From NCBI GenBank assembly GCA_030638825.1, contig DAOWDU010000031.1:4206-68205 (forward strand): DNA of 64,000 nt, read 5' to 3'. A program made the position numbers and the translations under genes. This document shows, in pieces, positions 2,772-61,939 of this stretch; the stretch's first letter is position 1, and every line of letters begins with the position of its first letter. Source of the DNA: a bacterium (GTDB lineage: Bacteria > Patescibacteriota > Minisyncoccia > JAHIHE01 > JAGLIN01). The notes beneath the pieces are model-generated. The model had not been told where the DNA came from, did not search any database, and was given only the letters and a program-made list of their open reading frames with translations.

Positions 2772-3554
2772 TTACCTCGTCAAAATCTCACATCCATCTT
2801 CCATCACCGCTACCGTGTGTTCAAAATGCGCCGATAATTTCCCGTCAGTTGTTCTGATTGTCCAGCCATCTTGATCGCATTTAATATCATAACTGCCTTC
2901 ATTCAACATCGGCTCTATCGCAAAAGTCATTCCTGGACATAATTTTAAACCAGTTCTTTTCTTACCAAAATTCGGCACTTCTGGCGGTTCGTGAATTGAT
3001 CGTCCGACGCCATGTCCGATTAGATTCCTAACAACAGAGAAATTATTTTCTTCAGCATATTTCTGCACAGCAAATCCAATATCGCCTATTTTATTTCCTG
3101 GCTTTACTTGCTCTATCCCTTTAAATAAAGATTCTCTCGTAACATCAATCAACTTCTGCGCTTTCTCGCTTATTTTCCCAGCGCCAATTGTCACAGCGCT
3201 GTCGCTGTGAAATCCTTTATATTTTACACCCATATCAATGCTCACAAGATCGCCCTCTTTTATTATTTTCTTAAACGGAAAACCATGCACAATTTCATCA
3301 TTTATAGAAAGACAGATTATAGACGGAAACGGAATTATACTGCTACATATTTTGTAATTTTTAAAAGATGGAATTACTCTATATCTCTGAACTTCTTTCT
3401 CCGCAATTTTTTCTAACTCATCTCCCGAAATTCCTGGTTTTATTTTAGAAGATAACAACTCCAAAATCCCCGCGAGTATTTTCCCGCTTTCTCTCATTGT
3501 TTTTATTTCGGATTTGGATTTTAGGTTTATTTTTCGTTTCATTATTTTATTCAT
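2772..3554 (-). CDS. map: Methionine aminopeptidase type I
   Basis: The motif HGVGRSIHEPPEVPNFG and other metal-ligand region motifs are present. The ORF start was trimmed to MNKIMKRK because the upstream 27 codons run into a family-A repeat. Confidence 0.85.
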   Translation of the reverse strand: MNKIMKRKINLKSKSEIKTMRESGKILAGILELLSSKIKPGISGDELEKIAEKEVQRYRVIPSFKNYKICSSIIPFPSIICLSINDEIVHGFPFKKIIKEGDLVSIDMGVKYKGFHSDSAVTIGAGKISEKAQKLIDVTRESLFKGIEQVKPGNKIGDIGFAVQKYAEENNFSVVRNLIGHGVGRSIHEPPEVPNFGKKRTGLKLCPGMTFAIEPMLNEGSYDIKCDQDGWTIRTTDGKLSAHFEHTVAVMEDGCEILTR

Positions 3555-3566
3555 TGTATTATAAAC

Positions 3567-3735
3567 TGTCATTGCGAGGAGCCCGAATGAACGCAGTGAG
3601 TGAAATGGCGACGAAGCAATCCCGTAACTATGCACAGAGAACTACCGACGGTGCCATAGTCTCCGCAGAGCTGTGGCACCGCATCTGCAAATCTTGCATT
3701 CTGGGTTCCACAGCCCTACGGGACTATGGAACCCT
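3567..3735. repeat. A truncated family-A element (left half) fused to a second repeat type (ggttccatagtctccgcagagctgtgg...)
   Basis: It opens with ctgtcattgcgaggagcc...gacgaagcaatcccgtaactatgcac. The second part is shared with 36440-36560. Confidence 0.55.
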
Positions 3736-8576: not shown

Positions 8577-8630
8577 AAATTTAAATTGTTATATAATCAT
8601 ATCCTCTTTAAATTGCAATTAGCTAAATTT

Positions 8631-8702
8631 GTCACCCTGAGCTTGTCGAAGGGTGATAAATTTAGCGAGCCTGCCCATCCTTCGACAAGCTCAGGATGAC
8701 AA
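8631..8702. repeat. Palindromic repeat family C copy
   Basis: The sequence gtcaccctgagcttgtcgaagggtg ... ccttcgacaagctcaggatgac forms an inverted repeat. Confidence 0.6.
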
Positions 8703-9436: not shown

Positions 9437-9577
9437 CTGTCATTGCGAGGAATGAAGTTGAGCGATAGCGAAACGGAATGACGAAGCAATCCCGTAACTA
9501 TGCACGATGAATTTAATCACGAGATTGCTTCGTCGCCATCTCTTCACTACGCTCAATCGGGCTTCTCGCAATGACAG
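9437..9577. mobile_element. Family-A TIR element (about 130-140 bp), MITE-like
   Basis: Termini ctgtcattgcgagga / tc(t/c)cgcaatgacag enclose an internal palindrome gacgaagcaatcccg...cgggattgcttcgtc. Confidence 0.75.
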
Positions 9578-11520: not shown

Positions 11521-11644
11521 CTGTCATTGCGAGGAGCTCCGCAGAGCGACGAAGCAATCCCGCAACTATGTCCAATGAATTTAATCACGGGATTGCTTCG
11601 TCGCCATCTCTTCGCTACGCTCAATCGGGCTTCTCGCAATGACA
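11521..11644. mobile_element. Family-A TIR element copy
   Basis: It starts with ctgtcattgcgaggagc, contains gacgaagcaatcccgcaact...cgggattgcttcgtc, and ends with tctcgcaatgacat. Confidence 0.75.
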
Positions 11645-11997: not shown

Positions 11998-12011
11998 AAA
12001 TGTTTTTATTT

Positions 12012-12081
12012 GGAGCAAGGGCTTTAGCCCGAAAGTGTATTAAATTAATCTATCTGACTATCGGGCTAAAGCCCTCGCTCC
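12012..12081. repeat. Family-B hairpin element (ggagcaagggctttagcccgaaag...cgggctaaagccctcgctcc)
   Basis: It is a near-perfect 25-bp inverted repeat. Other copies are at 29337-29399 and 61198-61267. Confidence 0.75.
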
Positions 12082-12083
12082 GT

Positions 12084-12458
12084 CTATAAAACCTCCGGAG
12101 CCAGCGAAACTATCTTCATAAATCCCTTATCTCTCAACTCTCTTCCAACAGGTCCGAAAATTCGAGTTGCTTTTGGCGTTATTCTGTCTTTGCTTTCAAC
12201 TACAACAGCGGCGTTATCATCAAAACGAATATACGATCCGTCTTTTCTTCTCAACGCTTTTCTTTGTCGGACAATTACTGCCTTAATAACTTCTTTCTTC
12301 TTAACCTGCCCTCTCGGTTCTGATAATTTCACAGAAGCGACAATTACATCTCCAATATAAGCATAGCGCCTTCTCGTTCCGCCAAGAACTTTAATGCACT
12401 TTATCAATTTCGCCCCCGAATTGTCCGCAATCATAAGTTTGCTTCCTTGTTGAATCAT
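12084..12458 (-). CDS. rplN: 50S ribosomal protein L14
   Basis: [17 protein letters not shown] is the canonical L14 N-terminus. Confidence 0.9.
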
Positions 12459-13504: not shown

Positions 13505-13670
13505 ATATTTAAACCAACCTATTTTTTAAAGCTGTAATTTTCAATTTCTAATTTCTAATTTTTATTGAATTTCTAATTCTTTAATTTCTAATCTTAAAAC
13601 TTCAAAATTGAAAATTAATTATTGAAAATTTAATAGAAATTAGAAATTAGAAATTAGAAATTTTTTACAG
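13505..13670. repeat. AT-rich palindromic array (agaaatt / aatttct units) in the rpsC-rplP intergenic region
   Basis: Inverted arrays of aatttctaatttctaat are mirrored by attagaaattagaaatt. A similar block lies at 37501-37655. Confidence 0.6.
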
Positions 13671-14688: not shown

Positions 14689-14830
14689 CTGTCATTGCGA
14701 GGAGCCCGATTGAGCATAGCGAAGAGATGGCGACGAAGCAATCCCGTGATTAAATTCATCTTGCATAGTCACGGGATTGCTTCGTCGACATTTCTCTCAC
14801 TTCGTTCGTTCAGCCTCCTCGCAATGACAG
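14689..14830. mobile_element. Family-A TIR element copy, between rpsS and rplV
   Basis: It runs from ctgtcattgcgaggagcc to cctcctcgcaatgacag and includes the internal gacgaagcaatcccgtg...acgggattgcttcgtcg palindrome. Confidence 0.75.
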
Positions 14831-20106: not shown

Positions 20107-20247
20107 CTGTCATTGCGAGAAGCCCGAATGAGCGTAGCGAAGAGATGGCGACGAAGCAATCCCGTGACTATGCACAAATGGCTTAGTCACAGGATTGCTT
20201 CGTCGGCATTTCTCTCACTTCGTTCGTTTAGCCTCCTCGCAATGACA
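20107..20247. mobile_element. Family-A TIR element copy, between rpsJ and rplC
   Basis: It starts with ctgtcattgcgagaagcc and ends with cctcctcgcaatgaca. Confidence 0.75.
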
Positions 20248-23498: not shown

Positions 23499-23638
23499 TG
23501 TCATTGCGAGGAATGAAGTTGAGCGATAGCGAAACGGAATGACGAAGCAATCCCGTAACTATGTCTAGTGAATTTAATCACGGGATTGCTTCGTCGCCTT
23601 CTCTTCGCTACGCTCATTCGGGCTCCTCGCAATGACAG
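23499..23638. mobile_element. Family-A TIR element copy, between fusA and dut
   Basis: It runs from ttgtcattgcgaggaatgaagttgagcg to ggctcctcgcaatgacag. Confidence 0.75.
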
Positions 23639-29326: not shown

Positions 29327-29336
29327 CATGTGTTTT

Positions 29337-29399
29337 GGAGCGAGGGCTTCAGCCCGATAGTTTAAAATTTTTAGACTTTCGGGCTGAAGCCCTTGCTCC
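29337..29399. repeat. Family-B hairpin element copy (ggagcgagggcttcagcccgatag...cgggctgaagcccttgctcc)
   Basis: It is an inverted repeat lying between atpB and atpE. Confidence 0.75.
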
Positions 29400-29435
29400 A
29401 AAAAACATATAACTTTTAATTTCTAACAAAAAACT

Positions 29436-31000: not shown

Positions 31001-31140
31001 CTGTCATTTTTCACTGTCATTGCGAGGAAGCCTGAGCGAGCGTAGCGAGCGAGATGGCGACGAAGCAATCCCAGTATTAAATTCCTCGTGCATAGTTACG
31101 GGATTGCTTCGTCGCTCTGCGGAGCTCCTCGCAATGACAT
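31001..31140. mobile_element. Family-A TIR element copy, between atpH and atpA
   Basis: It runs from ctgtcatttttcactgtcattgcgaggaagcc to gagctcctcgcaatgacat. Confidence 0.75.
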
Positions 31141-37500: not shown

Positions 37501-37655
37501 ACAAATTTCTAATTTTCAATTTCTAATTTCTATTGAATTTCTAATTCTTTAATTTCTAAATTTTTTATTATTTAAAATGTTGTTTGAAAATTTAGTTATT
37601 GAAAATTTAGTTATTGAAAATTTAATAGAAATTGAAAATTAGAAATTAGAAATTA
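37501..37655. repeat. AT-rich palindromic array (aatttctaat / attagaaatt) after atpC
   Basis: It mirrors the block at 13505-13670. Confidence 0.6.
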
Positions 37656-37658
37656 ATT

Positions 37659-38672
37659 ATGAATGTTCAACAAGCTCTCAAAGCTTCCGCTAATAAATTG
37701 AAATTACAAAACATCTCCTCTTTCGTTCTTGATGTAGAAGTTTTATTGTTGGAAGCGTTGAATAGAAATAACAACGCCCCTCACCCCAGCCCTCTCCCGC
37801 GGGGAGAGGGAGCTAAAAATAAAAGTTGGTTGTATTTGAATAATGAATATATTTTAAATAAAAAAGAAGAAGAATTATTTAATGATTTTATAAAGCAGAG
37901 GTTAGAAAATAAACCAGTTGCTTATATCATCAATAAAAAAGAATTTTACGGGTATGACTTTTATGTTGATAAAAATGTTTTAATCCCCCGCCCCGAAACG
38001 GAATTAATGATTGAAGAAGTTTTGAAAATTTTATCTGGAGTTCACACTTTAGTGTGTAAAAATTCAGACACAAATAAAATAAATTCCTACAGGTTAAAAC
38101 CTGAACTCCAGAATTTTAATTTAATAGACATCGGCACAGGATCAGGATGTATCATTATAAGTATTTTAAATGAATTAACAAAAAATAAAATTAATAAAAT
38201 TATTTACAACGCTTACGCAAACGATATTTCTTTAGAAGCGATTAATGTAGCAAAAATAAATGCGAAAAAATATAATCTAAATAAAAAAATAAGATTTATT
38301 AAAGATGATTTTGAAAAGTTTTTAGATAAAGAAGATATTTATACTTCTGATAAAATTATTATCACCGCCAATTTGCCCTACATAAAAAATGGCGACTATA
38401 AAAATCTTTCTGAAAATGTAAGAAAATACGAACCTAAAATCGCGCTCACAGCGGGAAAAAACGGCTTAGATTATATAGGAAAATTAATTAATTTAATATC
38501 TAAAAAACAACTAAAATCAAATCAGAAAATATACTTATTTCTTGAAGCCGATCCAGATCAGATGAGTGAAATAACGGCTATTTTAAGGGAAAGGTTAGCT
38601 AATGTAGATGTTGAAATTATTAGAGATTTGAGTGGTAAAGAAAGGATTGTTAAATTATTATTTGGAAATTAA
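37659..38672 (+). CDS. prmC: HemK/PrmC-family protein-(glutamine-N5) methyltransferase, carrying two in-frame palindromic-repeat insertions
   Basis: The motifs IDIGTGSG (motif I) and NLPY (an NPPY variant) are present. Inserts lie at 37779-37812 and 38035-38115. Confidence 0.7.
   Translation: MNVQQALKASANKLKLQNISSFVLDVEVLLLEALNRNNNAPHPSPLPRGEGAKNKSWLYLNNEYILNKKEEELFNDFIKQRLENKPVAYIINKKEFYGYDFYVDKNVLIPRPETELMIEEVLKILSGVHTLVCKNSDTNKINSYRLKPELQNFNLIDIGTGSGCIIISILNELTKNKINKIIYNAYANDISLEAINVAKINAKKYNLNKKIRFIKDDFEKFLDKEDIYTSDKIIITANLPYIKNGDYKNLSENVRKYEPKIALTAGKNGLDYIGKLINLISKKQLKSNQKIYLFLEADPDQMSEITAILRERLANVDVEIIRDLSGKERIVKLLFGN
38035..38115. repeat. Family-E palindromic element inserted in-frame within prmC
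   Basis: It is near-identical to 6127-6206 and encodes SGVHTLVCKNSDTNKINSYRLKPELQNFN. Confidence 0.7.
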
Positions 38673-38829
38673 TTGAAACTCGTAGAAATTTGTTGAAATT
38701 AATTGTTGTTTAAAAAATACAATTGAATTTCTATAAATTTCTACGAGTTTCTACAAATTTCTATATGCGCAGCAATTTAGACAAATCTAAAACACGGCTA
38801 TCATAAACCGTGCTTAGATTTGCAAAAAA

Positions 38830-39991: not shown

Positions 39992-40405
39992 CTAATCCGC
40001 TTTCTTAAGTTTATTTTCAATAAATTCTGTTATTTTTTCAGCAATTTCTATACAACCTCTCGCCTCGTTTTTGGAAAAAACTTTTATGTGACTCTCGGCA
40101 GGATAACGAGCAGGAATATATGATTGAGTTAACATTCTCAATTCTTTTTCAAATTGTGATAGATCAAGAAAGGATTTAGCTTTGTTAGCTAAAATATTAA
40201 GATTATGGATTTTATCTTTTTTGCTAAGTTTTCCCTTACTCGCTAATATCGTCGCCTTTATATATTTTTCAACCGCCTGTTGACACAAACAACAAATTTG
40301 ACTATAAAATTCTGTTTCTTTAAAAGAGGCTTTTGCAAACAACAAATCGTCTTTTCCTTTATATATCCAAGCACCTACTAATTCTTCATTTATATTTCTT
40401 TTCAT
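39992..40405 (-). CDS. HEPN-domain protein (toxin-like component)
   Basis: It has an alpha-helical HEPN profile with ARYP. It overlaps the upstream nucleotidyltransferase gene by 20 nt. Confidence 0.6.
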   Translation of the reverse strand: MKRNINEELVGAWIYKGKDDLLFAKASFKETEFYSQICCLCQQAVEKYIKATILASKGKLSKKDKIHNLNILANKAKSFLDLSQFEKELRMLTQSYIPARYPAESHIKVFSKNEARGCIEIAEKITEFIENKLKKAD

Positions 40406-40715
40406 AAATTAATTTTCCTTTATTATTTATCTCCTTAAAAAAGTAATATTTTTTTTTCAGCCCGCTTTCCCATTCTTTTGGCGTGTAAACTAAAATATCT
40501 GTTCCCATTTCCGAACTAATAACTTTAGCAACATCGAAAAGGCGAGAGCCAAATCTTCTTCTAGTTTTTTTAATTACCAATAAATCTACATCACTAGATA
40601 AATTGGGTTTTCCATAAGCATAACTACCAAAAAGAATAATTCTTTCTGGTTCGTAATTTTCAACAATCTGTTTGGTGATTTTTTTTATCTCTTGATTGGC
40701 TCTTGTTTTAGTCAT
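40386..40715 (-). CDS. Minimal nucleotidyltransferase (MNT) domain protein
   Basis: The motif LFGSYAYGKPNLSSDVDLLV (GS...DxD) is present. Confidence 0.7.
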   Translation of the reverse strand: MTKTRANQEIKKITKQIVENYEPERIILFGSYAYGKPNLSSDVDLLVIKKTRRRFGSRLFDVAKVISSEMGTDILVYTPKEWESGLKKKYYFFKEINNKGKLIYEKKYK

Positions 40716-53771: not shown

Positions 53772-55574
53772 TTATTGCGCTATTGCCCAAAAAGTCAATT
53801 GCGCCGATTTTGCGCCATTTCCATCTGAGTAGCCAGCGGGAATAGAAAGTTCTACGGCTACATTTTGATTGCCATCTTGAGCAATATCAGTTTCAAAATT
53901 TTTCCAGGACACGCTATTCAAATCTAAATTTTCGGTAAAGAGGGAATCTCCGCTAACTAAAGCCTCTATGTGTATATCAGAAGTTCCATTGTTATTAAGC
54001 GTAATATTTTTGGTAGCAGAAGATCCAGAATTTAAATTACCAAAATCAAGATTGCTTGTATCAACAACAAAAGAAATTGTATCTTCGTTAGTGCTATCTC
54101 CTTCAACATCTCCATTTTCTATAGTTACGGTCAAATCAACGGAAGAACTTGCCCCCTGCCCAACTTTTAATAAAATAGAATTACTTCTAACATATCCTTC
54201 TTTTTGCGCGTGAATTTTATAAAATCCGTCCTGCAAAGAAATGCCCACTTGTCCGTTAGTATTAGTAGTAATCGTATCCACGCCAAAATAAACAGAAGCG
54301 CCAACAAGAGGAGACCAAGAATTATCACTGAAAAATTCCACCGTAGCTGTAACGGATTGATTGGCATCTGCTTGCTCAGCTGATAAAACTAATCTTGTCG
54401 GCTGCCAGTCAAAACCGCCGTAATACCATAAAACAGAATCGCCAGTTTGCATTTCATAATCCGCCGCTCCCACAAAAAGAGATATATTATTAATTAAATA
54501 CAGCCAACCTAATTCTCCTTTTGCTTCGTCGTTATTAATTCTTTTTAGGTAAGGACCCCAGTCAGTATCTTTAACTTCATAAGTAAAATCGCAAATACTT
54601 TTTGCGTTTTTGACAATATCCAAAGCAGTTGGTCCAGTTACTTCACCTAAACAAATTGTTTCCTCTAATCCCTCAATACGAAAAGGAAATTTTTGGGCAA
54701 GGGCATCATTTTCCACAATATTAAGAGGAAGTTTTTTACCCTGTAGAGCGATAACCGCGTAAGCCGTGGTCATTGCCGAAAAAGAATCTTCTCCAGAGGA
54801 ACTATTTTGATATTTAAAAAAGCCTTGCTCACTTTGATTTAATTCAAGATATGAAATGGGAGTGTTGTCGGATTTGATCAAACCGCTTGGATCAATATCC
54901 AAAGCGTTAAGCGCCCAAATTACCCATGCCGTGGATGAAGAATCGGAATTAGAATCGGAATAATAAGGAAAACCGCCATCGTTATTTTGTGATGTTTGCA
55001 AAAAAGATAGGGCGTTTTGAATGCGAGAATCAGAGTTGTCAATTCCAGCAGATACAAGCGCTAAAATAGCGGCCGCAGTCATATTCGTATCAGAATTAGC
55101 TGTTACAGAAAAACCCCATCCGCCATCATCGTTTTGATGAGAAAAAATAAAGTTTTTTGAATCAACAATAATCACATCATCAAGAGATTCACCAGCGGAG
55201 ATAAGAGCCAAAATTCCAAAACAGTCATCATTAAGCATCGTAATATCTCCTATCTGATTTTCAGTATAATAGCTTTTAAGCGCGGCGACATAATCAGTTG
55301 ACGAAAAAACACGCGGATTTTCTCCTATAGCCGTTATCGCTAGAATTGGCGCGGCGTGATCAATGGCGTTTGTTCCATTGATAGAAATAAGATGATCTAT
55401 GGGAATAGAAGAATTTCCAAGCGCAGACAAAGCCATTGTGCTCCACGGATTAGCGCTATTTGCGGTTAAATAGTCCTGCGCGCTATTTGTGTTATAGGTT
55501 GCGTTTATTTCTGAAGAAGGAAACATGGAAAACAACAACACAACAATTAACATTACGGATAATAACTTTTTCAT
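53772..55574 (-). CDS. Secreted protein with prenyltransferase/terpenoid-cyclase-like repeats and a carboxypeptidase-regulatory-like domain
   Basis: It has a signal peptide. The repeats QNDDGGW and NDGGFPY are present. Confidence 0.45.
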   Translation of the reverse strand: MKKLLSVMLIVVLLFSMFPSSEINATYNTNSAQDYLTANSANPWSTMALSALGNSSIPIDHLISINGTNAIDHAAPILAITAIGENPRVFSSTDYVAALKSYYTENQIGDITMLNDDCFGILALISAGESLDDVIIVDSKNFIFSHQNDDGGWGFSVTANSDTNMTAAAILALVSAGIDNSDSRIQNALSFLQTSQNNDGGFPYYSDSNSDSSSTAWVIWALNALDIDPSGLIKSDNTPISYLELNQSEQGFFKYQNSSSGEDSFSAMTTAYAVIALQGKKLPLNIVENDALAQKFPFRIEGLEETICLGEVTGPTALDIVKNAKSICDFTYEVKDTDWGPYLKRINNDEAKGELGWLYLINNISLFVGAADYEMQTGDSVLWYYGGFDWQPTRLVLSAEQADANQSVTATVEFFSDNSWSPLVGASVYFGVDTITTNTNGQVGISLQDGFYKIHAQKEGYVRSNSILLKVGQGASSSVDLTVTIENGDVEGDSTNEDTISFVVDTSNLDFGNLNSGSSATKNITLNNNGTSDIHIEALVSGDSLFTENLDLNSVSWKNFETDIAQDGNQNVAVELSIPAGYSDGNGAKSAQLTFWAIAQ

Positions 55575-55869
55575 AATTTTCTTTCTAGATAAAATAAAAA
55601 CATCTCCGCCTCAGAGAAGATGTTCATTTTATCACAACAAAAACAAAACGAAGCCCCTCTTTAGCTCGAAGATAGGATCTTATCTTTTTATAAGTAGTTG
55701 GTTAGCATTCTGGCTTACTTCATCTTTCTGCAGAAGACAAAGATCACAGTTGCGGCACAGCACCAGATTTTTTCCAAATTACGGAAATCACTGGATTTTC
55801 CTAACCGACCTCTTTATATATTTAAAGAGGAACTATCTTATTAATTAATTTGTTAAAAGTAAAATAATT

Positions 55870-58896: not shown

Positions 58897-59077
58897 ATTT
58901 TTAGTTTATGTTTTTATGCTTGTATTATATAATGGTTGTTGGTTTTGGTCAAAATTATTTTCTATCGAAACATCCTTGTTTGTTGTCATCCCAGAATTTT
59001 TTCTAAAAAGCTTTAGCTTTAGAAAAAAATGTCTGGGATCCAGTTAATATCACTTAATAGAATTATTACGATAATTA

Positions 59078-60328
59078 TTATCCATTGAGATTAACTGGAT
59101 TCCCGCCTCCGCGGGAATGACAGAAAACAAGCTTCTTTATTTTCTCTCTAAAAACATCCTCTGAAAACTTCTCCGCCTGTTTCTTAATTTTTTCAGCATC
59201 ATAGTTATTATAATTATTTTTCATTCTCCTCACGCCGTCCGCTAAGATTTCGGGGATTGGATCGTCAAAAAATTCTCCTGTTTTTCCTTCAATTACTGTT
59301 TCTAAAACGCCTCCTTTTCTATACGCCAAAACTGGTTTGCCAAAAGACATTGCTTCAATTGGCGTTATTCCAAAATCATCTTCTCCCGGAAAAATAAACG
59401 CGTAACAATTTTCATAATATTGCGCGAGTTTTTCTTCTGGTTGAAATCCAAGAAATTTAATGTTCTTATTCGCTATTTTCTCAAGTCTTTTTTTATCTTC
59501 GCCCTCCCCAATGATCACAAGCGGCAATTCCAGTTTATTAAACGCTTCAATCGCAATATCTATTTTTTTATAAGGACTAAGACGAGAGACTACCAGGAAA
59601 TAACTATTATTATCTGTCATTGCGAGAAAGCCCGATTGAGCGTAGCGAAGAGAAGGCGACGAAGCAATCCCATGATTAAATTCATCGCGCGTAGTTGCGG
59701 GATTGCTTCGTCGCTCTGCGGAGCTCCTCGCAATGACAGTGTTCGTCGGCGGATAAATCACTTCACTCTCTCTTCCATAAAACTTCTTAATCCTCTTCGC
59801 GGTATGCTCTGAATTGGCGATGAAATAATCAACTCGCTCTGAAGCTGATTTGTCCCACATTCTTAAATAATGTAAAAACGGCAAAATAATTATTTTTTTA
59901 ATTCCGTTGATTTTATTTTCCTCAAGATAATTATAATACCAATCCCAAAGAAATCTGGTCGGAGTGTGGCAATAGCAAATGTGAACCGCTTTTGGTTTGG
60001 TAATTACTCCTTTCACAAATGAACTTGAAATGGAAATAACAACATCAAAATCCCTCAAATCAAAAGTCTCCGCCGCAGTCGGCATAAATGGCAATAGATA
60101 CTTTTTTCGCTTTTTTATAAACTTAGGCAACCTATTTAAAAACGAACTTCTTATTTTCGCACCAGGAAAATACTTCTTCATTTTTTTCTCATCATACAAC
60201 AAAGTATAAATCGGCGCGTCTGGATATAATTTATGCAACGACATCAAAACCCTTTCGGCTCCACCGAAGTAAGTTAAAAAGTCGTGAACAATCGCTATTT
60301 TTGGTTTTTGGGATGAGGGGGTTGACAT
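59078..60328 (-). CDS. GT4-family glycosyltransferase with an in-frame family-A repeat insertion
   Basis: The GT4 N- and C-domain sequences (EX7E region, GEFFDDP) are present. The insert lies at 59614-59739 in the interdomain linker. Confidence 0.7.
   Translation of the reverse strand: MSTPSSQKPKIAIVHDFLTYFGGAERVLMSLHKLYPDAPIYTLLYDEKKMKKYFPGAKIRSSFLNRLPKFIKKRKKYLLPFMPTAAETFDLRDFDVVISISSSFVKGVITKPKAVHICYCHTPTRFLWDWYYNYLEENKINGIKKIIILPFLHYLRMWDKSASERVDYFIANSEHTAKRIKKFYGRESEVIYPPTNTVIARSSAERRSNPATTRDEFNHGIASSPSLRYAQSGFLAMTDNNSYFLVVSRLSPYKKIDIAIEAFNKLELPLVIIGEGEDKKRLEKIANKNIKFLGFQPEEKLAQYYENCYAFIFPGEDDFGITPIEAMSFGKPVLAYRKGGVLETVIEGKTGEFFDDPIPEILADGVRRMKNNYNNYDAEKIKKQAEKFSEDVFREKIKKLVFCHSRGGGNPVNLNG
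59614..59739. mobile_element. Family-A TIR element inserted in-frame in the GT4 gene
   Basis: It runs from ctgtcattgcgagaaagcc through gacgaagcaatcccatg...cgggattgcttcgtc to gagctcctcgcaatgacag. It encodes about 42 aa without a stop. Confidence 0.75.
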
Positions 60329-60641
60329 AGTTTAAATTTATACTAAACTGGTAATATTGTAGGCAGAAATATTAATTACAGGAGATGAGAATATTAGTGG
60401 TGGAGATACTAAGGAAGTAAAGATAGAAGTAGCAGGTGTTGTAAGTCCGCATAGATATGCAGATAAGATGAGGGCTTTTCATCAATTAGAGGCACAAATG
60501 CGAAAAGATCTGCAAAAAAAGAAATAATTTAGGCGTCAATTTTAACAGAAGTTGAGATTGCTCTGCCTATTTTTTTTATTTATTTTCTTTTTAGATTGAT
60601 GAAATTGTAGGGGCGGATCACGACCCGCCCCTGCAATTTCA

Positions 60642-61778
60642 TCAATTCAACAACACTCCCATCGTCTCCCGCGCGCACTTCTCCCAACTAAATCTCCCAA
60701 CATTCTCAAATCCCCTTTCAATCATTTTATTTCTCAAATCATCATCATTAAAAACTTTACTCATCGCCTCAGAAATTTCTTGAATATTATTTGGATCAAT
60801 TAATAAAGCAGCACCCCCTGCCACTTCTGGCAAAGATGAAGTATTAGAACAAACCACAGGAACGCCATAACTCATCGCTTCTAAAACTGGCAAACCAAAT
60901 CCTTCGTAAAAAGATGGTAAAATAAATAAATCAGCATTTTGATATAACTCTTCTTTTTCTGATTCGGAAATATAATCTTTTAAAATAATATCTTTTTTAA
61001 ACTGCGATTCCTGAATTGTAGTTTTTATTTCCTCAAAACCAAATCCAGCTTTTCCAACTAAAATCAATTGCGAAGGCGACATTCCGGAATGTCGCCTTCG
61101 CAATTGATTTTTAAACAATTCAAACGCTTTGACTAAATTTACAATATTCTTCCTCTTCTCTAACCTTCCTAAAAATAAAACATTAAATTCTATTTTTGGA
61201 GTAAGGGCTTCAGCCCGAATTTGTACTAAATTATTTTGTTTCACTTTCGGGCTGAAGCCCTTACTCCAATTACTGTTTACCCCATGATAAACAACATTTA
61301 TTTTCCCCTCCTCAACTCCATAAAACTTAATCAAATCTTTTTTAGTATTCTCCGATGGGACAATAATTTTGCTTGCTAATTTTATTGAAAGTTTAGTATT
61401 AATTTCTAAAATCATTCTCTCTTTAAGAGAATAGCATTCGGGAAAATATTTATATTCCAAACCGTGGATTGTTACGACAGTTTTGGACGGATGGACTTGA
61501 GGAACAGCGTAAGCTGGAACAAACAAAACATCTGGTTTATTTTTCATCATTTCAGACGCCAACCCAATCTGCGTCCAGAATTTATTTGGAGAAATAATTT
61601 TCAATTTAAAATTACTTGGTAAATCAAAATCTATGACCAGATTTTTTCTTGCATATAAAAAAATCTGATGGCTTTTTAAATCCATCATCGCTAAATTCTT
61701 AATCAACTGATAAGAATATTCTTCTATCCCAGTTTTTTCTTTTTCAAACGCTCGTGAAGCGTCAATACCGATGTTCAT
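60642..61778 (-). CDS. GT4-family glycosyltransferase with an in-frame family-B hairpin insertion
   Basis: GT4 motifs are present. The insert at 61198-61267 lies in the interdomain linker. Confidence 0.7.
   Translation of the reverse strand: MNIGIDASRAFEKEKTGIEEYSYQLIKNLAMMDLKSHQIFLYARKNLVIDFDLPSNFKLKIISPNKFWTQIGLASEMMKNKPDVLFVPAYAVPQVHPSKTVVTIHGLEYKYFPECYSLKERMILEINTKLSIKLASKIIVPSENTKKDLIKFYGVEEGKINVVYHGVNSNWSKGFSPKVKQNNLVQIRAEALTPKIEFNVLFLGRLEKRKNIVNLVKAFELFKNQLRRRHSGMSPSQLILVGKAGFGFEEIKTTIQESQFKKDIILKDYISESEKEELYQNADLFILPSFYEGFGLPVLEAMSYGVPVVCSNTSSLPEVAGGAALLIDPNNIQEISEAMSKVFNDDDLRNKMIERGFENVGRFSWEKCARETMGVLLN
61198..61267. repeat. Family-B hairpin element inserted in-frame in the GT4 gene
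   Basis: The sequence ggagtaagggcttcagcccgaat...ttcgggctgaagcccttactcc encodes SKGFSPKVKQNNLVQIRAEALTPK. Confidence 0.75.
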
Positions 61779-61796: not shown

Positions 61797-61939
61797 TTGT
61801 CATTGCGAGGAGCCTGAGTGAGCGTAGCGAACGAGAAGGCGACGAAGCAATCCCGCAACTATGCACAACGAATTTAATCACGGGATTGCTTCGTCGCCAT
61901 TTCACTCACTGCGTTCGTTCAGGCTTCTCGCAATGACAG
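61797..61939. mobile_element. Family-A TIR element copy, between GT4 and mreB
   Basis: It runs from ttgtcattgcgaggagcc to gcttctcgcaatgacag. Confidence 0.75.

Follow-up and report, generated by a model that had tools for sequence, protein, structure and literature searches.

Two adjacent glycosyltransferase family 4 (GT4) genes in a 64,000-nt stretch of contig DAOWDU010000031.1 (hereafter the window) carry palindromic repeats that are very probably translated in frame, in the manner of the Rickettsia palindromic elements (RPEs). Gene 1 (59078–60328, minus strand, 416 amino acids) hosts a family A element and a repeat-derived C terminus, and gene 2 (60642–61778, minus strand, 378 amino acids) hosts a family B hairpin and a perfect palindrome, here called C. 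A preliminary description of the locus had proposed the A and B inserts and likened their behavior to that of RPEs. The likeness held, in that an in-frame repeat is read as an added peptide while the open reading frame (ORF) stays intact, and two intragenic repeats were found beyond those first noted: palindrome C (61060–61111) and element E (58984–59122).

The G+C content of the window is ~35%. The closest orthologs of both GT4 genes are named by their sources as Parcubacteria, Pacebacteria or Patescibacteria and, judged from these matches, the window genome is a member of the Patescibacteria of the Parcubacteria/Paceibacteria type. Both ORFs are unsplit, as had been claimed, and each has the domain pair of the GT4 family, an N-terminal Glyco_transf_4 and a C-terminal Glycos_transf_1 domain (residues 22–197 and 239–387 in gene 1, 17–169 and 188–357 in gene 2; Pfam E-values for the GT4 domains of 6e-32 and 5e-37). 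Solved GT4 relatives were found for both proteins by sequence search of the PDB. The AlphaFold2 model of gene 1 had a mean predicted local distance difference test score (pLDDT) of 83.7, exceeding 90 in the Rossmann domains that flank the insert. It adopted the two-Rossmann GT-B fold, and Foldseek matched it to MshA, HepE and BshA with E-values down to 6e-17. The mean pLDDT for gene 2 was 91.3. Gene 1 retains 67 of 67 columns that are invariant among 85 orthologs, and gene 2 retains every column invariant among 92.

The family A element (59614–59739, 126 nt) lies in frame in the inter-domain linker of gene 1 and encodes VIARSSAERRSNPATTRDEFNHGIASSPSLRYAQSGFLAMT. The TGTCA...TGACA core spans 59615–59738 (124 nt). 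The terminal inverted repeats of the element match perfectly over 13 nt and its inner stem over 16 nt, and the predicted RNA hairpin has a free energy of −62.2 kcal/mol (z = −7.5). The interval is a multiple of three and free of stop codons in the frame used, in agreement with the preliminary description, and its translation runs NTVIARSS...FLAMTD. This peptide (residues 197–238) falls exactly between the two Pfam domain matches, and its pLDDT is 37–66.

The same element is dispersed through the window. The A terminus, TGTCATTGCGAG, has 17 matches compared with 0.02 expected, and these define nine family A copies of 74–141 nt, eight intergenic and one in a gene. Every full copy has a 12- to 13-nt perfect terminus TGTCATTGCGAG and its complement CTCGCAATGACA, that is, terminal inverted repeats, and the family is an inverted doublet of a ~40- to 50-nt unit (TGTCATTGCGAG...GACGAAGCAATCC) around a spacer, which folds as a long hairpin. 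The intergenic copy closest to the in-gene element is in the L5/L24 spacer (~11522–11644); aligned over 11521–11644, the two are 94% identical (E = 2e-49). A 141-nt copy lies between gene 2 and mreB (61798–61938; RNA hairpin of −87.2 kcal/mol), and the others are at 3567–3640, 9438–9576, 14690–14829, 20108–20247, 23499–23637 and 31015–31139. The RNA hairpins of the A copies range from −62 to −87 kcal/mol, and zero to two of the six frames of a copy are free of stop codons, usually one or two. No direct repeat, the expected trace of a target-site duplication, was found around any of the eight full A copies or around intergenic orthologous copies.

The spacers that hold A and B copies separate co-oriented genes (L18/L6, L5/L24, L24/L14, L3/S10, dUTPase/EF-G, map/adk and ATP synthase delta/alpha). 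The copies located within the S10-spc operon, beside EF-G and within the ATP synthase operon probably share transcripts with highly expressed genes. At 3567–3640, the GTG start listed for the methionine aminopeptidase ORF (2772–3635, minus strand) falls inside the shortened A copy; the Pfam match of this protein does not start before residue 46, which probably places the true start farther downstream, an example of the annotation hazard posed by open repeat frames. A palindromic element at 8629–8702 has TGTCA-type ends (TTGTCACCCTGAGCTTGTCGAAGGGTG ... CATCCTTCGACAAGCTCAGGATGACAA) and follows the TGTCA-hairpin plan of families A and E. Within long ORFs, G+C-rich palindromic repeats were found as three copies, every one of them in the two GT4 genes; a further two hairpin clusters within ORFs had the look of chance matches of 10-mers. 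No Rfam family matched the repeats, which produced only sub-threshold matches to microRNA precursors, apparently of a generic hairpin kind. The 141-nt A copy had zero blastn matches among 72,556 plasmids, and an exhaustive search of representative proteins with the 44-residue insert peptide gave only five weak matches, four of them to short proteins. A literature search with the repeat nucleotide strings returned only unrelated primer sequences.

The family B hairpin of gene 2 (61196–61269, 74 nt) lies in frame in the inter-domain linker and encodes approximately NWSKGFSPKVKQNNLVQIRAEALTPK. Its arms (61196–61230 and 61235–61269) are 86% complementary, with an RNA hairpin of −46.2 kcal/mol (z = −11). 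The hairpin is real and stop-free, as had been proposed, but the palindrome is 74 nt rather than the 70 bp (61198–61267) first given, a length wrongly described as a multiple of three. It corresponds to residues ~171–194, and residues 172–193 are the sole segment of gene 2 with a pLDDT below 50. The A and B inserts are thus modeled as low-confidence loops between well-modeled Rossmann domains, the position first suggested for them. The family B core has six matches in the window compared with 0.00 expected, and two of the three copies are intergenic (12003–12090, between the L24 and L14 genes, and 29328–29408, after the ATP synthase A gene). An initial assumption that this core motif was specific to family B was dropped: GGGCTTCAGCCC is also a variable bulge hairpin in A-type elements of other genomes.

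Palindrome C (61060–61111, 52 nt) is perfect, its arms being 100% complementary, and has an RNA hairpin of −36.4 kcal/mol (z = −10.7). It lies in the C-terminal Rossmann domain of gene 2, encodes NQLRRRHSGMSPSQL (residues ~223–240) and is modeled with a pLDDT of ~84–90. The site is a second hypervariable loop of gene 2. Below, DNA stretches of relatives and other genomes have L-numbers and ortholog proteins have P-numbers; L002 and L007 come from different metagenome samples. Palindrome C is common to the window and L006 and is shared in part by L002, and other orthologs have either 7-nt tandem repeats, (GCTACAA)n, or a PLxKGG-type hairpin insert at the site. YKLQATSYKL-like peptides at this second site were at one stage taken for diverse hairpins, a reading that was abandoned because the underlying DNA consists of the 7-nt tandem repeats.

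Element E (58984–59122, 139 nt) is a composite TGTCA...TGACA element with units TGTCATCCCAGA...TCTGGGATCC and GGATTCCCGCCTCCGCGGGAATGACA. It entered just before the ancestral stop codon of gene 1 and provides the last 15 codons, FCHSRGGGNPVNLNG, together with a new stop codon. Filled and empty sites can be compared directly here: the E site is empty in L002 and L004, where a conserved promoter-like motif belonging to the next gene, TTGACC-N17-TATAAT, overlaps the stop. No target-site duplication was found at E, although the empty site is known. The repeat-derived C-terminal tail has a pLDDT of 44. At the same locus, L007 has a different TGTCA...TGACA element of ~290 nt past the stop, and L001 has a 24-nt remnant encoding LSSLFQNDR, a C terminus also present in the P0005/L003 protein.

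Comparison with orthologs showed that most lack the A and B segments. The gene 1 linker, measured from IYPP to YFLIVSRL in 120 orthologs, has a median of 20 residues (range 14–73) compared with 47 in the query; the net gain is ~30–42 residues depending on the ortholog, rather than a fixed 42 as originally claimed. The corresponding figure of 24 for gene 2 was too high. In orthologous DNA, the gene 2 linker consists of two 17-nt tandem repeats, and B stands in their place with a net gain of 39 nt (13 residues). Where the A segment is shared, it has the repeat's own nucleotides rather than a diverged, non-repeat sequence: P0002 and P0003 (85–86% identical) have the same A peptide, P0005 has the A element in the opposite orientation, and P0006 and P0007 have in-frame shortened A versions, one in each orientation. 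P0009 and P0014 have a small CCCCCTTTGCGAAAGGGGG hairpin in the gene 1 linker instead of A, and peptides of other repeat-family types occur there too (CHSREGGNP..., WFHSPNGAERSEAVEP..., SPPPPLRKGE and KLKVHKVKS). The gene 2 linker has a median of 17 residues and reaches 24 or more in 27 of 120 orthologs, the long versions including A-like peptides (CHCEE...RND and VIANEVKQS...APRN) and an E-like one (CHSG...RFRGN). Only the query and the near-identical P0122 and P0164, from other contigs, have B. The occurrence of several repeat families at both linkers across orthologs marks these linkers as recurrent landing pads. Because the inserts are also present on separately assembled contigs (P0004, P0164 and P0122) and on the metagenome contigs L002 and L007, they are not assembly artifacts. 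Three A+T-rich intergenic arrays in the window (13524–13663, 37504–37654 and 38660–38766) consist of AATTTCTAA-type short repeats with long imperfect inverted repeats; short repeats related to them (AAAGTTCATAAAGT) appear to be translated, as KVHKVK, in linkers of gene 1 and gene 2 orthologs.

The orthologous A copies of the window, L002, L007 and L003 are exactly 124 nt long and occupy gene nucleotides 590–714. After correction for orientation they are 88–90% identical, compared with 79–93% for the flanking gene. The constant length and site and the flank-like identity indicate that A was inserted once, in an ancestor, and then inherited vertically by at least four lineages. Relative to L002 and L007, the window copy has −1 and +1 indels that together restore the frame (PSLRYAQSGF versus PSRSLRSFGL), and L004 and L005 have in-frame internal deletions of A; such maintenance of the frame points to selection on the enzyme. 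The stems hardly changed over the same period. Among the four lineages, one of 57 stem columns varies, compared with 23% of columns in the flanking gene (Fisher p = 1e-5), 11% at codon positions 1+2 (p = 0.02), 47% at position 3 (p = 7e-13) and 31% in the rest of the element (p = 8e-6), and no compensatory base change was seen in the 37 stem pairs. Either selection acting on the element or gene conversion by its other copies may hold the stem core constant.

The element also appears to have flipped in place. The L003 copy matches the others only as its reverse complement (88–90% identity versus 60–62%), with flanks 91–93% identical to those of L007. The A copy in the mreB/GT4 spacer (61798–61938) is found at the same locus in L002 and L005, and there the window and L002 copies, both 141 nt with the same downstream flank, are 93.6% identical as reverse complements versus 75.2% directly. 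A clean empty A site was sought in this spacer, where insert-free relatives have other sequence. Because of the palindromic ends, both orientations of the in-gene element read VIAR...LAMT and stay open. The flips could reflect either in-place inversion via the terminal repeats or re-insertion at the same point.

Related elements are widespread outside this genome. The pattern TGTCATTGCGAG-N10-36-GACGAAGCAATCC occurs in at least 119 stretches of one-genome-per-species GTDB contigs, against a chance expectation that we ourselves estimate at ~0.03, and among the matches listed the A core is present in >15 phyla. Hosts include Alpha- and Gammaproteobacteria, Chloroflexota, Bacteroidota, Ignavibacteria, Verrucomicrobiota, Planctomycetia, Nitrospirota-type lineages, Desulfobacterota, Omnitrophica, Acidobacteriota, Melainabacteria and several Patescibacteria classes; among the Alphaproteobacteria are Bradyrhizobium, Rhodopseudomonas, Ca. 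Tisiphia (L015, L025 and L093) and a Rickettsiales metagenome-assembled genome (MAG; L069). The architecture is constant, with an outer stem, a variable bulge hairpin, an inner stem and a variable loop, and many phyla share one conserved 25-nt core. The unit occurs elsewhere either singly or as an inverted doublet of 63–250 nt. The core pattern was also present in 10 predicted viral IMG/VR contigs (L136–L145); viruses are a possible vehicle of its cross-phylum spread, or these may be host-derived regions.

In-frame copies are not confined to the GT4 genes. A-type elements lie in stop-free stretches that reach at least 60 codons on either side in 21 of 132 cases, and Pfam-confirmed hosts with the element between or inside domains are LeuRS, RsmA, MnmA and a pyridoxal phosphate (PALP) enzyme, together with RecG in a Pseudomonadota MAG and PurQ in an Anaerolineales MAG. 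The LeuRS gene of Parcubacteria GW2011_GWB1_42_6 (L037:1023–3800, minus strand) has three different palindrome-derived in-frame segments, CHCEESEGRRSNP...ARDDG, VIASSERAKQSR...APRNDD and CHSRSASVIPAQAGIQ...RFHGDD. In L039 (2528–3790, plus strand), a single ORF holds a TruB pseudouridine synthase and a cytidylyltransferase-like domain, with an A-type element in frame between the two, and this repeat may have fused two neighboring genes. Scanning metagenomes for B turned up four B-type copies; the copy in L135 is in frame in a Mur ligase, where it is read as the same peptide as in gene 2 (NWSKGFSPKVK...IRAEALAP).

These observations are consistent with a genome peppered with short G+C-rich hairpin repeats, those of families A and E sharing the plan TGTCA-hairpin-TCC ... 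GGA-hairpin-TGACA and B being a separate hairpin family. Most copies sit in operon spacers, and a few would have landed in, or spread into, protein positions that tolerate extra residues: the disordered linkers of two adjacent GT-B enzymes, a variable loop of the C-terminal domain and the extreme C terminus. Because the repeats are G+C rich in an A+T-rich genome, they contain few stop codons and usually offer one or two stop-free frames, so a minority of insertions would survive, where a loop can lengthen. Copies that keep the frame would be translated as a floppy loop that leaves the enzyme intact. For the protein, the inserts are presumably neutral or nearly neutral passengers, the frame probably being kept by selection on the enzyme and the stems held invariant either by concerted evolution among the copies or by selection acting on the element itself. 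Spread would have proceeded without target-site duplication, and candidate routes are a single-strand hairpin or HUH/RAYT-type enzyme (RAYT, REP-associated tyrosine transposase; REP, repetitive extragenic palindromic), template switching and gene conversion. The lack of target duplications and of a transposase in the window makes such routes likelier than a DDE-type miniature inverted-repeat transposable element (MITE).

Several points weigh against this interpretation. Screening of the 52 Pfam-annotated ORFs in the 64-kb window revealed no mobilizing enzyme. That the inserts are translated is deduced from the intact frame and the conserved enzyme residues. There is no clean empty site for A or B, the linker being unalignable outside the subclade; insertion is deduced from repeat-family membership and ortholog length, whereas E has a before-and-after pair. 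The stems vary less than the non-synonymous positions of the enzyme, which is unexpected for a neutral passenger unless gene conversion is frequent. Short-read misassembly could in principle account for the flips, although the 12- to 17-nt inverted repeats are below usual assembly k-mers.

The stem conservation also raises the question of whether the hairpins are nucleic acid structures selected at a domain boundary, with the peptide as a by-product. Such a structure could act as a translation pause for folding of the N-terminal Rossmann domain, an internal attenuator, an RNase III site or a binding site for a conserved factor. It would explain why the stems are more conserved than codon positions 1+2, why a 25-nt core is kept across many phyla, why the hairpins are so stable (−62, −46 and −36 kcal/mol; z = −7.5 to −11) and why different hairpin or repeat families repeatedly occupy both linkers in orthologs. 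However, equal stem conservation is seen in intergenic copies and in unrelated genomes, which makes it a property of the element and not of the position in the gene. Most orthologs, close ones included, have short hairpin-free linkers, L004 and L005 still carry, in frame, shortened derivatives in which the palindrome is destroyed, and not one of the 37 pairs shows a compensatory change; we therefore consider this explanation unlikely. Still less probable is that the A element of gene 1 is an intragenic invertible segment that provides two alternative linkers (VIARSSAERRSNP... or VIARSLSERSERNGDEAIP...) within a population. Intragenic invertons are documented (10.1101/2023.03.11.532203), and both orientations do occur at one site in orthologs with the ORF intact and with flanks 91–93% identical (L003/L007), VIAR...LAMT being read through the terminal repeats either way; a second locus, the mreB spacer, is also flipped between close relatives. 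The two orientations were, however, seen only between metagenome lineages and never within one sample, and no invertase or recombinase gene was found nearby among the window ORFs. Apart from the flip itself, the two versions differ by ~10%, so flipping must be infrequent relative to sequence divergence, and a disordered linker would not be expected to produce a phenotypic difference.

Repeats are a classic cause of misassembly and MITE insertions usually inactivate genes (PMC10969869), which could suggest that the genes are decaying pseudogenes or repeat-made assembly chimeras. Both readings were rejected as highly improbable: the ORFs are full length and have lost none of the residues invariant among 85 and 92 orthologs, model confidence is high except at the inserts, compensated indels have left the 124-nt length unchanged, and the same insert is present on separately assembled contigs, including L002 and L007 from their different samples. 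In-frame translation of dispersed palindromic repeats remains the interpretation that best accommodates the data.

RPEs are palindromic repeats of ~100–150 bp that occur between genes as well as within them, and their in-frame insertions into unrelated housekeeping genes contribute peptides that the protein fold accommodates. Some of these inserts are ancient, an example being RPE-7, present in PheT throughout Rickettsia; the families RPE-1 to RPE-10 are known, and RPEs have also been reported in Wolbachia (PMC1779305; PMC10969869). The A copies resemble them as interspersed palindromes of 74–141 nt, eight intergenic and one in a gene, as in-frame insertions that add a peptide at a permissive site of a conserved gene and leave the ORF intact, and as an ancient inherited insert, A being present in at least four lineages with relatives in LeuRS, MnmA and RsmA. 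The likeness is one of behavior; the one hint of a link in sequence is the presence of the A core in Ca. Tisiphia and in a Rickettsiales MAG. The host here is one of the Patescibacteria rather than a member of the Rickettsiales or another intracellular alphaproteobacterium, and the A core extends, among the matches listed, to >15 phyla. To our knowledge, neither stem invariance nor in-place flips have been described for RPEs.

Other known systems share some of these properties. Family A resembles REPINs (defined in PMC3337134 and PMC3116915) in being an inverted doublet with a spacer that folds as a long hairpin, with units that also occur singly elsewhere, and in having copies that are mostly extragenic, within operons, free of target duplications and persistent at orthologous loci. 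No Y1_Tnp/RAYT gene was found among the window ORFs, and REPIN-RAYT systems are described as mostly vertical within individual lineages, whereas the A core is shared across phyla. The 5′ motif of REPs is GTAG, in place of TGTC(A) here, and the RAYT gene is typically single copy. REPs are extragenic by name, whereas the copies described here, and those in LeuRS, MnmA, RsmA, RecG and PurQ, appear to be translated. MITEs are likewise small elements with terminal inverted repeats, non-autonomous ones, and in-frame fusions to host ORFs are known for ERIC, Coxiella QMITE1, Anabaena MITEs and Correia elements (PMC10969869); they differ in that no target-site duplication is seen here and in that the whole element is palindromic, not the ends alone. 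No cognate insertion sequence or transposase with A ends was found among the 52 Pfam-annotated ORFs of the window. Intragenic invertons (10.1101/2023.03.11.532203) also consist of an inverted-repeat-bounded segment within a gene that keeps the frame in both orientations, but the two states seen here belong to different lineages, the segment is itself a dispersed repeat, and no invertase was found in the window.

The locus order mreB, GT4, small ORF, GT4, large DUF11/DUF7619 surface protein and NlpC/P60 protein is kept in relatives. A further hairpin, with 32-nt arms and a GGGGCGG/CCGCCCC core (60588–60653), overlaps the gene 2 stop codon (60642–60644); it is followed by no U-run on either strand and is therefore not a canonical terminator. 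Elsewhere, the window contains the S10-spc ribosomal-protein operon, EF-Tu, EF-G, AlaRS and the ATP synthase operon. A cobalamin riboswitch (55683–55852, minus strand; Rfam score of 33.2 bits versus a gathering threshold of 31.5) lies upstream of an ORF (53772–55574) with prenyltransferase/terpene-cyclase-like toroid repeats and a DUF4430 domain, and a HEPN/minimal nucleotidyltransferase pair of the toxin-antitoxin type (39992–40715, minus strand) lies among the housekeeping operons.

In-frame palindromic repeats have so far been treated as a hallmark of Rickettsia, and a 2024 review only suggested that similar MITE-mediated protein evolution may have taken place in other prokaryotes (PMC10969869). 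Literature searched for palindromic elements or MITEs of the Candidate Phyla Radiation (CPR) or Patescibacteria contained no description of such inserts. The data presented here very likely reflect the same process in the CPR, and a single locus provides an evolutionary series of full, flipped, in-frame shortened and insert-free orthologs, along with orthologs occupied by other repeat families. Conservation of the stems at the nucleotide level within a coding region stands out; together with the cross-phylum core and the in-frame flips, it could be among the newer parts of these findings. Elements of the same kind are in frame in essential genes of several phyla (LeuRS, MnmA, RsmA, RecG, PurQ and Mur ligase). 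Extra segments and odd N or C termini of CPR proteins can be translated repeats, of which annotators should be aware (predicted insert-derived peptides include VIARSSAER, FLAMTDNNSYFLVVSR and GFSPK), and for structural biologists the inserts map permissive sites of GT-B enzymes. The locus also offers a tractable system in which to study how hairpin elements move and why the core is so widely conserved. We raise, tentatively and as a possibility we hold more doubtful than probable, that the TGTCA-hairpin-TCC palindromes form one actively maintained, pan-bacterial superfamily whose 25-nt core stays invariant through recognition by conserved machinery and which, above all in Patescibacteria, routinely colonizes linkers and loops in frame, is inherited over long periods and can flip in place with the frame unbroken. 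If so, they would continually supply proteins with new loops and linkers and promote gene fusions such as the possible one in L039, as a general process well beyond Rickettsia.

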